Translations under genes and position numbers: made by a program
Notes under the pieces: model-generated
What the model saw: the letters and a program-made list of their open reading frames with translations, nothing else
What the model was told of the DNA's origin: nothing
The model's database searches: none
Assembly: GCA_947581615.1 (NCBI GenBank)
Contig: CANPVD010000068.1
Span: forward strand, 2,240 to 66,239
Length of the DNA: 64,000 bases
Reading direction: 5' to 3'
From: Candidatus Humimonas hydrogenitrophica
Lineage (GTDB): Bacteria; Gemmatimonadota; Gemmatimonadetes; Palauibacterales; Palauibacteraceae
Part shown: in pieces, positions 58,381 to 64,000 of the stretch
How positions within the stretch are numbered: the first letter of the stretch is position 1
Layout of the letters: the number at the start of each line of letters is the position of its first letter

Positions 58381-60105
58381 ATGGGAAGCGTGATGGACGA
58401 TACCCGGTCCCGGGAGGCGCTCGAGCGCGAGCTCGAGGCCCGGGAGAGCGAGGTCGAGGCGCTGCGCGCGGAGCTCGCGAGCTGGCGCGAGGCCTACGAG
58501 GCCGTCCCCAAGCGGGGCGACGCGGCTGGCTTCACGACCGTGTCGGGCCGGAAGGTGGCGCCCCTGTATACGCCGCTGGACCGGGACGGGTTCGACTACG
58601 CGCGGGACCTGGGCTTCCCGGGCGAGTTCCCGTTCACGCGGGGCCCCTACCACAGCATGTACCGCACCCGGCTGTGGACCATGCGGCAGTTCTCCGGCTT
58701 CGCCACCGCCGAGGAGACGAACGAGCGCTACAAGTTCCTGCTCGAGCGCGGCCAGACCGGGCTCTCCGTCGCCTTCGACTTCCCGACCCTCATGGGCTAC
58801 GACTCCGACGACCGCCTGTCGGAGGGCGAGGTGGGGAAGTGCGGCGTGGCGATCACGAGCCTGGCCGACATGGAGACGCTGTTCGACGGCATCCCGCTGA
58901 GCGACGTGTCGGTGTCGATGACCATCAACGGGCCGGCCATCATGCTGTACTGCTTCCTGCTGGTGGCGGCCGAGAAGCAGGGGGTGCCGTTCGAGGAGGT
59001 CCAGGGCACGATCCAGAACGACATCCTCAAGGAGTACATGGCGCAGCACGCCTGGATCTACCCGCCCGAGCCGGCCCTCAAGCTCATCGTCGACACGTTC
59101 GAGTGGTCGGCCGAGCACGCGCCCAAGTTCAACACGATCTCGATCTCCGGCTACCACATCCGGGAGGCCGGCGCCACGGCCGCCCAGGAGCTGGCCTACA
59201 CCCTGAAGAACGGCTTCACCTACGTGGAGCGGGGGATGGAGCGCGGGCTGGACGTGGACGCCTTCGCCCCGCGGCTGTCCTTCTTCTGGGACGTCCACAA
59301 CGACTTCTTCGAGGAGATCGCCAAGTTCCGGGCGGCGCGCCGCATCTGGGCCCGTCACCTGCGCGAGGTCTACGGGGCGCGTGAGCCCGAGAGCTGGCGG
59401 CTCAGGACGCACGCGCAGACGGCCGGCGTGACGCTCACCGCCCAGCAGCCCGTGAACAACGTGGCCCGGGTGGCCTACCAGGCCATGGCCGCGGTCCTGG
59501 GCGGCACGCAGTCGCTGCACACCAACGCCCTCGACGAGACGCTCGCCCTCCCCACCGAGCAGGCGGTGCGCGTGGCGCTCCGCACCCAGCAGATTCTCGC
59601 CTACGAGACCGGGGTCGCCCACTCGATCGACCCCCTGGCGGGATCCTACTACGTGGAACGGCTCACGGACGAGCTCGAGGAGGAGGCCGAGGAGATCTTC
59701 CGGGAGATCGACTCCCTGGGCGGCGTCGTCTCCGGGATCGAGAACGGTTACTTCCAGTCCCAGATCGCCGCCTCCTCGCGCCGCTTCCAGGCGGAGGCCG
59801 AGTCCGGCGAGCGGGTGGTCGTGGGCGTGAACGAGTTCGTGGAGGACGAGGAGACCCCGATCGAGATCCTCAAGATCGGCGAGGAGGCGGCCGAGAAGCA
59901 GGAGGCGCGCCTGGCCGCCCTGCGAGAGCGCCGCGACGGGGCGGAGGTCGAGCGCCTGCTGGACCGCCTGGGCGAGGCGGCCCGGGCCGACGAGAACCTC
60001 ATGCCCCCCATGCTGGACGCCGTCCGCGCCTACGCCACCCTGGGCGAGATCCGGGCCACCCTGGAGGAGGTGTACGGCAGGTTCCAGGAGCCGGTGAGCT
60101 TCTGA
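58381..60105 (+). CDS. Acyl-CoA mutase family catalytic (large, TIM-barrel) subunit lacking a fused B12-binding domain (methylmalonyl-/isobutyryl-CoA mutase-like)
   Basis: [52 protein letters not shown] is the mutase substrate barrel. The 574 aa protein ends before any Rossmann DxHxxG B12 domain. Confidence 0.8.
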
Positions 60106-60148
60106 CCAGTCGGCTGCCCGAGCCCGAAGGCCTCAGCCCATTCCGTCG

Positions 60149-60787
60149 CTACCCCGAGGTTCGCCGTGCGCAGAAGTAGCCGTTGGGTGTCGGTGGCCTC
60201 CAGAAGCCGACAGCCCATGTGCCCTTGAGGCCCATGGAATCGGCTGCCCATACGACCCAATCGGGAGCTCGCCGCGGCCGAACGCTTCCGCTCCGTTCGA
60301 TCTCTCCTTGTTCCAAGAAGACGGTGCTGTCCCTTCCCCGCGAACCTACCACCTGCTTGGGCAAGTCCACAGATTGAACAATGCGGGCCGTTGCTGGCTG
60401 TAGCGAATCTGCCTCACCTTTGTCCAGGGCGAGATCAGTGTGTCCTTCGACGATCCAGGAGAGACCCTTGAGTATTTCAGGGCCTTCGCGTGACCATCGC
60501 TCGAGGGTCAAATGGCCAGACACATCGGAGCCTTTCTGCTCACCAGCCGCGATGTACATAGTCAGTTCATATGTTCCGGGCAGCCACCCAATCTCGACGA
60601 CCGAGCCCGCGAGCGTATCCGGTGGACCACAACCTCGGATATCCGCCGCTGCCTCCTGTCGTGACTTCTCTTGCCTTGATGGGCTACAGGCGATCACCGA
60701 CGCTGCCATCACGACGCTGACGATGCCGACTAGGTTCCGCCTTACGCACCGCTTGCTGCCGCCCTCGCATTCGTCCTTCAGCCTCAT
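60149..60787 (-). CDS. Hypothetical lipoprotein; candidate immunity protein for the adjacent RHS toxin C-terminal domain
   Basis: Lies 15 nt downstream of the RHS stop on the same strand. Signal plus lipobox ..VVMAASVIAC-S. No recognisable family. Lies in a GC-depressed (about 57%) segment. Confidence 0.5.
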   Translation of the reverse strand: MRLKDECEGGSKRCVRRNLVGIVSVVMAASVIACSPSRQEKSRQEAAADIRGCGPPDTLAGSVVEIGWLPGTYELTMYIAAGEQKGSDVSGHLTLERWSREGPEILKGLSWIVEGHTDLALDKGEADSLQPATARIVQSVDLPKQVVGSRGRDSTVFLEQGEIERSGSVRPRRAPDWVVWAADSMGLKGTWAVGFWRPPTPNGYFCARRTSG

Positions 60788-60802
60788 GATCTTCTGAGCG
60801 CC

Positions 60803-63800
60803 TCATTGTGGCCAGGAACAAGTCGTCCAACTGGAATCGATAGGGGTATAAACGTAGAGCAAACCGGAGATGATTATGTGAGTCGTGTGCCGAGTCTTTG
60901 TCGTGCATGTATCTCGAAGGCTTGGAGCGCCGCCGCCCCAATGCGTATGAAAGTCTCCAGAGGCGCCTGCGTAGAAGGGCACGTGCACAGTGTCTCCTCC
61001 CGGTCTGCCGGAAACGGTTACGTGCAATGGATCGCTCCACGGAGCCCCGTACCAGCCGCCAAATTCCTGCCTGTTTAGCCACGACCGCCTGTAGAGATTA
61101 CCTGCCTGCTCGAGGAAGCTCGCGTTGAATTGACAATTGAACGTGTCGGCCCGAGCAGCCGCGGCTGCTCCACCCCCCGGAGGTCCAAACGCGGCAAAGC
61201 CGGAATTGGGGCCCGCACCGTCACCGTCGCCCCCGAGGCCGGGCGCTGAGGAGGCGCCATAGCCACCGGCGGCACCCGCACCGCCGCCACCGCCCTGGAC
61301 GAGGACCTTGAGCTCCGTCGCGTCGTCGCACCACGGATCGGGAGTCCAGGTGAAGTAACAGTCGAGGCCAGAGGGATCCGTCCCGTTCGTGGGACTGTTC
61401 CCCACGTAGGCGTAAGGGTTGATCCCGGCCGAGAGCCCCAGCGGATCCTCGCTGAGGAAGCGTCCGAGCTCGGGGTCGTAGGAGCGGGCGCCCATGGCGT
61501 AGAGGCCCTCGTGCCAGTCGAGCATCGAGCCGGCCCAGCGCAGCCAGTTGGACACGGTGGTCGAGCCGTGCTGGGCATTCCCCCAGGGATCGTAGCGGTA
61601 GTCGTTGGCCACGCCCGAGTCGCCGAACAGCCCGAGGACGGAGCCGAGGTCGTCGGTGGCCAGGTAGTAGGTCTCCTCGTCGGCACGCAGGCTGTGGGGC
61701 AGGGCGCCGCCGGGGAAGTAGGCGTAGGTGGCCTTGAGCGCGGTGGCCCCGGCGTAGACGGCGAACAGGGAGCTTCCGTCCCACAGGAAGTGGAGGACGT
61801 AGCCGGTCTTGCCGCGCTCGACGCGGCGGCCGAAGCCGTCGTACTCGTAGCGCCAGACGGTGTCGCCGTCGGCGAGGCTGTCGAGCCGGCCCGTGGGGCT
61901 CCAGTAGAAGCTCTCGTTCACTCCGCTTCCCGACTTGGAGGTGAGCCGGCCGGCGGCGTCCCAGGTGAGGCTGTAGCCGGCGAAGGAGCTCGGCCGGTCG
62001 GCCGTGTCGATCACGGCGCCGTGGTCGGTGCGATTCCCCACCGCGTCGTAGGCGTAGAGCGCCGAGTCGGCGACCGTGTAGCCCGAGTTGAAGCTGCAGT
62101 CGTTGGGATCGATCGAGCCCGGCGTGCAGGTCACCCCCGCGTTGGCCACGCGGTCCACGTACCCGGTGAGCCGGCTCTCACTGTCGTACGTATAGGCCCG
62201 GCTCGTGTCCTCGCTCGCCCCCCGGTAGACCGCGGTCCGCCGGCCGAGCGAGTCCTCGCTGAAGGCCTGCCCGAACTTCGCCTCGAGGACGGAGCTGCTC
62301 CACGAGAGGGACCCCGTCCGGTGGGAGGAGGCCACGCCGCGCCACAGCGTGTCGCCGGTCGGGTAGATCACTTTCGTGGTCTGGCGGTCCGCGTCGTAGG
62401 CGAAGGTCGTCGCCTGCCCCCCGGCGTCGATGAGGGAGTCCAGCCGGCCCTGGTCGTCGTACCGGTAGCCCACCGAATCGGTCCACGGGGTCGTCGCGGC
62501 GATCTCGGCCCGGCGGCCCTCCCCGTCGTACCGGCTGTGGAGGACGTAGCGGGTAGAGCCCCGGCGGGTGATCTGGTCCACCACGCGGCCCGCGGCGTCG
62601 TAGGTCACCGTGTCCGTGCTCGCGGCGTTGGAGGCGGCGACGAACAGGCCGTCGGGGTCCGTCGTGAACGTGGTGGTGTCGCCCCCCTCGGCGCGCCACG
62701 CCAGTTGGCCCAGGGCGTCGTAGCCGAAGCCCACGGTCTGACCCACCCGGTTCGTCCAGCTCGTGATCCGTCCGTTCGCATCGTAGGCGTACGCGTCGGC
62801 GTGGCCGGCGGGATCGGTGCGCCCGGTGATCCAGCCCAGGGCGTTCCGGTCGAACGAATAGGTCTGTCCGAGGGCGTCGGTCACTCCCGTGACGTAGAGC
62901 GAGTCGTACGACAGGCGCGTGGTGTCCCCCAGGGGGCCGACCGTGAGGGTCATCCGGTTCAACGTGTCGTAGGCCGTGGTGGCGGTGTGACCGTCGGCGT
63001 CCGTGACCTGGACGGTCCGGCCGTAATCGTCGTAGGCGTAGCGCGTGGTCCTCGCCTCGCTCGACAGCGTCGAGTCCACGCCCGTCTTCACCGAGTCGGT
63101 GTTCATGGAGCCGGCCGGAGCGTAGAACACCCTCAGCTCGTGGTGCTCCGGGTCGATCCGGGTGAGGAGGCGCCCCAGGGAGTCGTAGGTGAAGCGCGTG
63201 GCCGCGGCCGCCGAGCTTCCGACGCGCACGCTGTCGACCCTGCCGTCCGTGTAGTCGAGCCACCGCGGCGTCACGTCGCCGTAGAGGCGCGTGGGCAGGT
63301 GGGGAGCGAGGGAGTCCTCGTAGGCCAGGTGGACGGTCCGGTCGCTGGCGCGATCCGTCTCCTGCGTGAGGTCCGGCCCGTCCCACGTGTAGTCGACGGT
63401 GTCGCCGTTCGGGAGGATCGCCTGCGTGAGCCGGGAGTCGCCGTTCCGAACGAAGTGCGTGGCGGATCCCAGCGCCGGATAGATCCAGGTCGGCGCCAGG
63501 AACCTGTCGACCTGGAAGGAGGTCGTGTCTCCCTCCGGGTCCACGATGGCCGGTCGCGCGGTCCCGGACGCTACCGAGGTCGCGGGACTCGAGGACGTGC
63601 CCTCTCCGGAGTCGCTCACCATGTGGGCCACCTGCCAGGCCAGGGAGGCGTACCGGACGACCGGGCGCATGGACGCGCTGTCGGCGACCACCTCGGGCAG
63701 GGTGTCGGCGGCCAGCCGGCCGGCGAAATCGTAGGCGAAGCCCCAGTCGTTCCCGCCGCGATCGGTGCGCGTGAGCATCCGGTGGTCGGCGTCGTAGGTC

Positions 63801-64000
63801 GCCCGCAGGGCATCGACGCCCTCGGGGTACTCGATGTGATTGAGGTCCCCCGCCACGCTGATCGTGACCTTGACGTGCCGGCCCTCCGGATCCTCGATCC
63901 ACGCCAGCTTCCCGTCGTACCCGTACCCGATCGTGAACGACTGGCCCGTCGGGTCCGTGACCGTGTGCAGGCCGTGCGTGTTGTACGCGTACGTGGTGGC
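60803..64000 (-). CDS. RHS/YD-repeat polymorphic toxin (5' end outside window) with uncharacterised C-terminal toxin domain
   Basis: ORF 60803..63856 continues in frame to the window edge (hand translation of 63857-64000 gives ..YAYNTHGLHTVTDPTGQSFTIGYGYDGKLAWIEDPEGRHVKVTISVAGDLNH). More than 25 YD repeats (YDxxGR). Canonical core end DPLGLSAGINPYAYVGNSPTNGTDPSGL (DPxGL). An about 190-aa variable C-terminus follows. Confidence 0.85.
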   Translation of the reverse strand, partial: ATTYAYNTHGLHTVTDPTGQSFTIGYGYDGKLAWIEDPEGRHVKVTISVAGDLNHIEYPEGVDALRATYDADHRMLTRTDRGGNDWGFAYDFAGRLAADTLPEVVADSASMRPVVRYASLAWQVAHMVSDSGEGTSSSPATSVASGTARPAIVDPEGDTTSFQVDRFLAPTWIYPALGSATHFVRNGDSRLTQAILPNGDTVDYTWDGPDLTQETDRASDRTVHLAYEDSLAPHLPTRLYGDVTPRWLDYTDGRVDSVRVGSSAAAATRFTYDSLGRLLTRIDPEHHELRVFYAPAGSMNTDSVKTGVDSTLSSEARTTRYAYDDYGRTVQVTDADGHTATTAYDTLNRMTLTVGPLGDTTRLSYDSLYVTGVTDALGQTYSFDRNALGWITGRTDPAGHADAYAYDANGRITSWTNRVGQTVGFGYDALGQLAWRAEGGDTTTFTTDPDGLFVAASNAASTDTVTYDAAGRVVDQITRRGSTRYVLHSRYDGEGRRAEIAATTPWTDSVGYRYDDQGRLDSLIDAGGQATTFAYDADRQTTKVIYPTGDTLWRGVASSHRTGSLSWSSSVLEAKFGQAFSEDSLGRRTAVYRGASEDTSRAYTYDSESRLTGYVDRVANAGVTCTPGSIDPNDCSFNSGYTVADSALYAYDAVGNRTDHGAVIDTADRPSSFAGYSLTWDAAGRLTSKSGSGVNESFYWSPTGRLDSLADGDTVWRYEYDGFGRRVERGKTGYVLHFLWDGSSLFAVYAGATALKATYAYFPGGALPHSLRADEETYYLATDDLGSVLGLFGDSGVANDYRYDPWGNAQHGSTTVSNWLRWAGSMLDWHEGLYAMGARSYDPELGRFLSEDPLGLSAGINPYAYVGNSPTNGTDPSGLDCYFTWTPDPWCDDATELKVLVQGGGGGAGAAGGYGASSAPGLGGDGDGAGPNSGFAAFGPPGGGAAAAARADTFNCQFNASFLEQAGNLYRRSWLNRQEFGGWYGAPWSDPLHVTVSGRPGGDTVHVPFYAGASGDFHTHWGGGAPSLRDTCTTKTRHTTHIIISGLLYVYTPIDSSWTTCSWPQ

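Follow-up and report, generated by a model that had tools for sequence, protein, structure and literature searches.

We describe a toxin locus at positions 60149-64000 of a 64,000-nucleotide stretch of DNA from Candidatus Humimonas hydrogenitrophica, a member of the Gemmatimonadota (contig CANPVD010000068.1 of assembly GCA_947581615.1), and this whole stretch is referred to as the window. All the features of the locus lie on the minus strand, where an rhs gene ends in a C-terminal tip that is predicted to adopt the JAB/MPN fold and is followed by a gene for a lipoprotein, the candidate immunity protein. The rhs frame is open from 64000 to 60806 (1065 codons) with its stop codon at 60803-60805, and the gene is cut at its 5' end by the window edge, which leaves 879 amino acids (aa) of the RHS/YD-repeat shell visible (61364-64000). 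Matches to RHS_repeat (Pfam PF05593) were found over 12 stretches of the visible product (1.3e-43), together with matches to YD_repeat (TIGR01643, 2.2e-36) and, at aa 803-879, to the Rhs-associated core (Rhs_assc_core, TIGR03696, 3.8e-24; 61364-61594). The core ends with the autoproteolysis motif DPLGLSAGINPYAYVGNSPTNGTDPSGL at 61447-61364, which reads as the canonical DPLGL-x19-DPSGL. The original prediction, made from the letters of the window alone, was of an RHS polymorphic toxin truncated by the window edge with a shell ending in this motif, and the open frame, the family scores and the motif all bear it out.

The C-terminus that follows DPSGL was found to be 186 aa long (61363-60806) and is made of a 23-aa segment rich in cysteine and tryptophan, a linker rich in glycine and alanine and a globular domain of 115 aa (60806-61150). 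The estimate of about 190 aa given beforehand therefore holds, whereas the linker, put at about 60 aa, measures about 48 aa (61151-61294); it is disordered in the AlphaFold model. The pre-toxin segment DCYFTWTPDPWCDDATELKVLVQ at 61295-61363 carries two cysteines and is found nearly identical, with two substitutions, ahead of a different, helical toxin resembling a glycine zipper in a related metagenome locus (L015). A blastn comparison of the two loci delimits a shared segment of 978 bp that comprises the end of the shell and the linker (61160-62137). Since the homology breaks at about 61160, the toxin proper is confined to the last 115-118 residues. In loci L012, L014 and L019, too, the toxin domain comes after a Gly-rich linker. 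The first 71 aa after DPSGL are therefore a lineage-wide adaptor, made of the Cys/Trp segment and the linker, and not part of the toxin domain.

The segment directly after the cleavage site (DCYFTWTPDPWCDD..., 61295-61363), with its two conserved cysteines and several tryptophans, is common to modules with unrelated toxins. We noticed that L014 and L019 have other segments at this site which are likewise rich in tryptophan, contain two to three cysteines and are followed by the Gly-rich linkers. The Cys/Trp segment may be a common release or translocation element.

The lipoprotein gene (60149-60787) encodes 212 aa and starts after a spacer of 15 nt (60788-60802) behind the rhs stop codon, on the same strand, as had been predicted. 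Its product begins with MRLKDECEGGSKRCVRRNLVGIVSVVMAASVIA-C34, a signal peptide with a lipobox (60686-60787; codon of Cys34 at 60688-60686) in which the sequence SVVMAASVIA-C34, ending in SVIA-C34, fits the PROSITE PS51257-type pattern. Lipoprotein status was assigned throughout by this type of pattern and not by a trained predictor; the strict pattern is matched by three of the five family members and the other two are off by one residue. A promoter-like or terminator-like site was not found in 59800-61400, which is consistent with co-transcription of the toxin and lipoprotein genes. In addition, the GC content at third codon positions (GC3) is 0.65 for the tip as a whole, 0.61 for the globular domain within it and 0.66 for the lipoprotein gene, as against 0.95 in the RHS shell, like host genes, and 0.98 in the neighbouring mutase gene. 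By their shared low GC3 the tip and the lipoprotein gene are therefore a single unit, whose history differs from that of the shell and the chromosome.

Homologues of the lipoprotein, about 190-215 aa long, immediately follow the toxin gene in L013 (in two distinct pairs, L013a and L013b), L014, L017 and L012, that is, behind five of six diverged toxin homologues. The five-sequence lipoprotein alignment (A4), in which the relatives are 23-27% identical to the window protein, has as invariant features the lipobox C34, C53 about 20 residues later, a G-x-W-x-x-G motif and a C-terminal G-x-F-C-A-x-R motif. The mature protein thus keeps two further invariant cysteines, C53 and C206. The divergence of toxin and lipoprotein is coupled, with identities of 57% and 42% respectively between L012 and L014, of 54% and 36% in another comparison and of 36-40% and 26-29% between the window pair and the P0002 type, so that the lipoprotein diverges faster than its toxin. 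Such coupled divergence is expected of toxin/immunity pairs. The toxin-immunity arrangement that had been proposed from the order of the two genes is therefore repeated in diverged pairs, and judged from these sequences the lipoprotein is very likely the cognate immunity protein of the toxin tip.

A lipoprotein that has nothing to do with the toxin, being a passenger or a helper in export or assembly while the immunity function lies elsewhere, would agree with the lack of a family member downstream of the toxin in L019 and with the IS-split lipoprotein gene of L011/L023, whose interruption has no obvious consequence. This reading is highly improbable. The split copy belongs to an orphan toxin fragment which is presumably not expressed; in the five diverged pairs the lipoprotein gene starts no more than about 60 nt from the toxin stop codon or overlaps it; the foreign codon usage of the cassette is shared by both genes, which also travel together in orphan modules; and the lipoprotein is found nowhere else, as the word-indexed search of 5.8 billion protein clusters returned only the lipoprotein itself. 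Its comparison with PDB sequences gave only a chance match to a 'GTW' in a FABP.

Further lipoprotein genes were noticed at the related loci. The P0002-type tip in L023 (10896-12900, the same as L011 6896-8900) has its lipoprotein gene split by an element of the IS3 insertion sequence (IS) family, with residues 1-38 before the element and residues 38-188 after it, and the transposase genes lie at L023 11072-12345. In L012 a second, unrelated lipoprotein gene (1842-2441; 199 aa, lipobox LLLVVG-C) follows the cognate one; it may be an orphan that confers immunity to a different envelope toxin. The unrelated lipoproteins of L012 and L019 were compared with the family as possible remote members and this was rejected.

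The toxin domain is rare. Word-indexed searches of the same 5.8 billion clusters found no relatives of the toxin tip, and when 1.84 billion representatives were searched exhaustively with HMMER, four matches came up, two of which are genuine, namely P0002 (7.7e-12) and P0004 (4.9e-5). Both are RHS C-termini, and the remaining two matches are noise caused by repeats. Loci L013-L019 came in addition from pattern scans run on genome and metagenome collections; among them, L013 is a metagenome-assembled genome (MAG) of the Gemmatimonadales with the window's tip at 95% identity, L014 is a MAG from the Gemmatimonadota and L015-L017 and L019 are further metagenome loci with the toxin domain. The domain was observed on an RHS protein at every locus with upstream sequence, L017 being too short to tell. 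The cassette recurs at 93-100% identity in at least ten independent metagenome or MAG contigs and diverged pairs of toxin and lipoprotein occur elsewhere, and therefore these features are not chance open reading frames.

Seven distinct toxin sequences, 29-94% identical to that of the window, were aligned (A3). Nineteen positions are invariant: C6, F12, Q15, E29, G31, G32, G35, P37, W38, P41, T45, G62, G65, H68, H70, P76, D80, P103 and C111. Residue S77 is kept in five of the seven sequences and is Gly or Asp in the other two, while the middle residue of the H-x-H element is T, S or A among the family members. Among the conserved positions, the polar ones match the JAMM motif E-x(n)-H-[S/T]-H-x7-S-x-x-D except in the spacing between H and S. 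In the window this JAMM-like span extends from E29 to D80 (60911-61066), with the codons of E29 at 61066-61064, H68 at 60949-60947, H70 at 60943-60941, S77 at 60922-60920 and D80 at 60913-60911. The invariant Cys6 (61135-61133) and Cys111 (60820-60818) flank this span and lie outside it.

The toxin, the lipoprotein and all their homologues gave nothing above noise in Pfam, NCBIfam, PHROGs and PADLOC. The sole signal to a JAB model came from one family member, with an E-value of 0.075 to Prok-JAB. Searches of PDB sequences with the toxin were negative: the single sequence gave linker-driven AAA-ATPase noise, profile A2 weak cupin and maltase matches only, and profile A3 none. We also noticed a variant of the window-type toxin in L016 (1775-3130) which has H-S-H in place of H-T-H and Phe in place of the non-conserved Cys83; it may be the source of the weak Prok-JAB match, for which the P0002-type tip is the alternative.

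AlphaFold gave a predicted local distance difference test (pLDDT) score of 34.7 for the whole 186-aa tip from a single sequence, and a pLDDT of 68.1 with a predicted template modelling (pTM) score of 0.66 from an alignment of three sequences. The secondary structure of the model is composed of a helix (residues 10-25), strands 31-34 and 43-45, a low-confidence loop (47-61), a strand (65-69), a helix (78-87) and three C-terminal strands. The closest structural matches of the model are the ubiquitin and NEDD8 isopeptidases Rpn11 and CSN5; in Foldseek PfJAMM1 and RadC were the top matches, weak ones, and a comparison with BFVD folds gave weak JAB/RadC-like matches only. In AfJAMM the active site is formed by E22 of beta2, H67 and H69 of beta4 and S77 and D80 of alpha2, and residues 41-60 form a disordered loop (PMC300881). 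The toxin model places E29 just before its first strand, H68 and H70 at the end of strand 65-69 and S77 and D80 at the start of helix 78-87, with the low-confidence loop between. Four invariant residues are therefore predicted to fall at the site that in JAMM enzymes contains the catalytic zinc and the glutamate acting as general base.

Taken from this model, a JAB/MPN fold for the last 115 aa is highly probable, and such doubt as we attach to it is due to the shallow alignment behind the model. Modelling of the residues after DPSGL and structure searches, which had been named beforehand as the way to check the domain, thus gave a JAB-like prediction from the three-sequence model, and significance against PDB was not reached. 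Two other assignments were tried and rejected: a cupin fold, as the second motif is absent, and an LAS/M23 peptidase, as the H/D and HxH elements occur in the wrong order.

Toxins of this kind are already known from comparative genomics. Two clades of JAB toxins were described, in silico only, by Zhang, de Souza, Anantharaman, Iyer & Aravind (2012, Biol Direct 7:18; PMC3482391). The Tox-JAB-1 clade, from Bacteroidetes, is carried by RHS proteins that have a signal peptide (classed 'T2SS', for type II secretion system) and shows the signature NxxxE/HxH/S/D; its immunity protein, Imm65, is the only immunity protein of that collection with a lipobox and has a Y-x-C signature (PMC3482391). Tox-JAB-2, which is DUF4329, has the signature E/H[ST]H/S/D and an NTF2-like immunity protein (PMC3482391).

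The window system resembles Tox-JAB-1/Imm65 in its RHS carrier, in the signal peptide (here observed in L014), in a C-terminal JAB toxin with E, H-x-H, S and D, and in the lipoprotein immunity protein. The Y-x-C signature of Imm65 also resembles the [Y/H/F]-F-C-A-x-R at the C-terminus of the lipoprotein, at the level of the pattern only. The two systems differ in phylum, Gemmatimonadota as opposed to Bacteroidetes, and no asparagine is conserved four residues before E29 in alignment A3. The comparison with Tox-JAB-1 and Imm65 was made by description, and both homology and convergence would agree with it. Pfam-A includes models for Toxin-JAB1 and Imm65. A survey of RHS arrays on Bacteroidota plasmids for Tox-JAB-1 found only AHH, HNH and DUF4329 tips linked to a type VI secretion system (T6SS).

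The likeness to Tox-JAB-2/DUF4329 (PF14220), which forms the tips of E. coli K-12 RhsB and RhsD, lies in an RHS tip of about 115-120 aa with the same layout of a helix, E-F-x-G-G/L, [Y/F]-H-T-H, S-x-x-D and T-P. An hhalign comparison of A3 with three DUF4329 sequences (A5: RhsB, RhsD and Tenacibaculum) covered 93 columns, in which the elements E, HTH, S-x-x-D and T-P lined up, and was not significant (Prob 0.5%, E 0.12). PF14220 matched none of the seven family members at E <= 10, with the RhsB tip as the positive control at 3.9e-40. Unlike the window toxin, DUF4329 tips are carried by T6SS PAAR-Rhs proteins, have cytoplasmic NTF2-like immunity proteins (YhhH/YbbC, Imm-NTF2-2, in E. coli and Klebsiella) in place of a 212-aa lipoprotein that has no Pfam match, and have no terminal cysteine pair at the equivalent positions.

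The JAMM/MPN+ isopeptidases (AfJAMM, Rpn11, CSN5 and PfJAMM1, and the bacterial Cap3 and BilC) are cytoplasmic and cut ubiquitin-like C-termini, whereas the domain found here forms the tip of a secreted toxin and is paired with a lipoprotein, belongs to none of the sequence models and has an H-x-H-to-S spacing of 6 or 11-12 residues as opposed to 7. The sequence family is therefore new while the kind of toxin is not, and the toxin domain appears, from its alignment and predicted structure, to be a new and very rare sequence family of JAB-fold RHS toxins with its own family of lipoprotein immunity proteins. The view in the original prediction that the C-terminus lies outside the recognised toxin families stands at the level of family models, none of which match, and fails at the level of fold and architecture, given the predicted JAB fold, the JAMM motif and the Tox-JAB precedent. 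The same split applies to the outcome which had been said to count against that view, a known toxin family with a known immunity fold: it was found for the fold and the architecture and not for the family models.

Each of the six candidate immunity proteins is a lipoprotein, and this holds for the unrelated protein of L019 too; invariant cysteine pairs are kept in the toxin (C6/C111) and in the lipoprotein (C53/C206). Because of these two features the toxin probably acts in the periplasm, or at least outside the cytoplasm. Export by Sec is suggested by L014, the only full-length relative (1445 aa), because it carries a Sec signal peptide and has no PAAR match. An envelope target had been the earlier reading from the lipobox and the cysteines, and the conserved Cys pairs in both proteins and the signal peptide on L014 strengthen it. 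After its signal peptide, L014 has a Cys-rich region of about 400 aa that has no Pfam match and lies before the first RHS repeat (996-2200). It is probably composed of beta-sandwich domains and could have a role in adhesion or anchoring.

A comparable logic is seen in periplasm-acting T6SS effectors of the Tae, Tge, Tle and Tlde groups, which have periplasmic or lipoprotein immunity proteins and adopt NlpC/P60 amidase, lysozyme-like, lipase or L,D-transpeptidase-like folds. As proposed for the pair described here, the immunity protein is found in the same compartment as the toxin's activity and disulfides tend to stabilise the two partners, while the folds are others and delivery is by the T6SS. 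Taken as a whole, these observations lead us to favour, somewhat above even chances, an RHS-delivered JAMM toxin that acts in the periplasm and is blocked by the lipoprotein.

Several points weigh against this explanation. The model of the toxin domain has moderate confidence and was built from only three sequences, and Foldseek against PDB was not significant, with a best E-value of 0.043 (the best match being a JAMM protein). From the H-x-H element to S there are 6 residues in the window protein and 11-12 among its relatives, the canonical value being 7. Neither the window protein nor its relatives matched JAB (PF01398) or Prok-JAB (PF14464) above threshold, and none of the members of A3 and A4 matched a toxin or immunity family in Pfam-A. 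The toxin homologue of L019, 60% identical to the P0004 domain, is followed by an unrelated 117-aa lipoprotein (L019 1559-1960), and this may be a case of another family of immunity proteins or of a partner that has been exchanged. The N-terminus of the window rhs product lies outside the window and its export by Sec is extrapolated from L014. A search of the literature turned up no experimental study of a JAB domain from a toxin, and likewise no characterised envelope toxin of JAB fold. The JAB likeness could be an artefact of modelling, the domain having another fold (cupin-like or with another H-x-H metal site, or deaminase-like) or being a non-enzymatic binder; we consider this quite unlikely.

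A nuclease role for the JAB domains of toxins, suggested by analogy with RadC (Zhang et al. 2012; PMC3482391), is a further point against the periplasmic reading. Later papers on JAB toxin tips repeat only 'putative RNase', and their annotation stays at 'probable nucleases/RNases'. The toxin would then be a RadC-like JAB nuclease acting in the target cell's cytoplasm, and the lipoprotein would capture it in the periplasm, ahead of its passage across the inner membrane. Six of six candidate immunity proteins are lipoproteins, with an unrelated one in L019 among them, the invariant Cys pairs of toxin and immunity protein are typical of oxidising compartments, a domain for translocation across the inner membrane is not evident, and the best structural matches are isopeptidases and not RadC. 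In addition, known nuclease toxins have cytoplasmic immunity proteins. We therefore regard a cytoplasmic nuclease as unlikely.

The structural matches to Rpn11 and CSN5, being isopeptidases of ubiquitin and NEDD8, also fit an effector directed at eukaryotes, in which a JAMM deubiquitinase or deneddylase is presented on a surface-exposed or secreted RHS/teneurin-like cage with the lipoprotein as an accessory. The JAMM motif is intact and Sec-exported RHS/teneurin-like proteins exist. However, the five diverged lipoprotein partners are tightly linked to the toxin and co-diverge with it, and orphan modules of toxin and lipoprotein are stockpiled, which are hallmarks of toxin/immunity pairs that act between bacteria; the terminal Cys pair also suits an extracytoplasmic bacterial compartment over the eukaryotic cytosol. 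The chance that the toxin is such an effector is slim.

For the favoured periplasmic JAMM toxin, the following course of action may be proposed. The RHS protein would be exported by Sec, as suggested for L014, and its caged C-terminus would be cut autoproteolytically after DPSGL and released into the periplasm of a neighbouring cell. There the toxin domain, held by a disulfide between its terminal cysteines, would hydrolyse an amide bond of the isopeptide type in an envelope substrate in a zinc-dependent reaction. The membrane-anchored periplasmic lipoprotein would bind the toxin and block its zinc site, thereby protecting the producer and its kin. Our best guess for the substrate, a tentative one drawn by analogy, is the peptidoglycan stem peptide or a linkage between peptidoglycan and protein, because JAMM enzymes cut isopeptide bonds and the envelope contains chemically similar bonds in its cross-links and in the tethers between protein and peptidoglycan. 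It is conceivable, with the odds against it, that the domain is a disulfide-stapled zinc isopeptidase cutting an isopeptide-like envelope bond and would thus be the first periplasmic toxin enzyme of the JAB/JAMM type.

The arrangement of the cassette in sister strains shows how the tip may be exchanged. L015 and L016 are strains 95-97% identical to the window, and their main rhs gene has the same segment from DCYFTW to the Gly/Ala linker followed by a different tip. After this tip and its partner they carry a silent orphan module, made of a 978-bp copy of the shell end and linker and then the JAB tip and the lipoprotein gene. By blastn, window 62973-61160 corresponds to L015 1-1814 and window 62137-60360 to L015 2530-4307. 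In the window strain the JAB tip is on the main rhs gene and the intervening tip/immunity pair is absent. The 978-bp repeat, of which the sister strains have one copy in the main gene and one in the orphan, would thus be a substrate for toxin-tip exchange. The informative sites in the repeat are mosaic, so that a single crossover is not reconstructable; they fit recombination or gene conversion and are not proof of a single event.

The main-gene tip of the sister strains (L015 3-2476, also L016 82-1742) is about 150 aa long, hydrophobic and rich in Gly/Ala zippers (...GGYMIGAAAACEVDRNYYR), and after it comes a 94-aa protein in which membrane helices are predicted. The two look like a membrane-active toxin/immunity pair.

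The gene next to the locus in the window encodes methylmalonyl-CoA mutase and is convergent on the other strand, and the genes beyond it are housekeeping genes. Long arrays of rhs orphans were observed adjoining the same mutase gene in L023 (1-16000) and L013 (1-6000). L011/L023 contain several modules of shell fragment and tip, including a P0002-type JAB tip, and L013 contains two in the stretch covered, with IS21 and IS3 elements interspersed. The chromosomal site by the methylmalonyl-CoA mutase gene is therefore a storage locus for toxin tips in this lineage. Arrays of rhs orphan tips with recombination-driven toxin switching are classical in Enterobacteria, and the sister strains are alike in that their JAB and lipoprotein cassette is an orphan placed after a different tip/immunity pair; the difference is one of phylum only. 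Across the whole window (1-64000) no tRNA genes and no Rfam families at gathering threshold were found.

The locus documents the classical switching of rhs orphan tips in Gemmatimonadota, a little-studied phylum. Through its lipoprotein partners, its Cys pairs and a Sec-exported carrier, it also adds independent genomic evidence, as a second case, that some JAB toxin tips act outside the cytoplasm. With a compact domain of 115 aa and a partner of 180 aa, the pair would lend itself readily to a search for the substrate. If confirmed, JAMM chemistry, the hydrolysis of isopeptide bonds, would be added to the toxins that attack the envelope. If the zinc isopeptidase is true, the prediction of toxin JAB domains as nucleases would be overturned and these domains would form a new enzymatic class of envelope-targeting interbacterial toxins.

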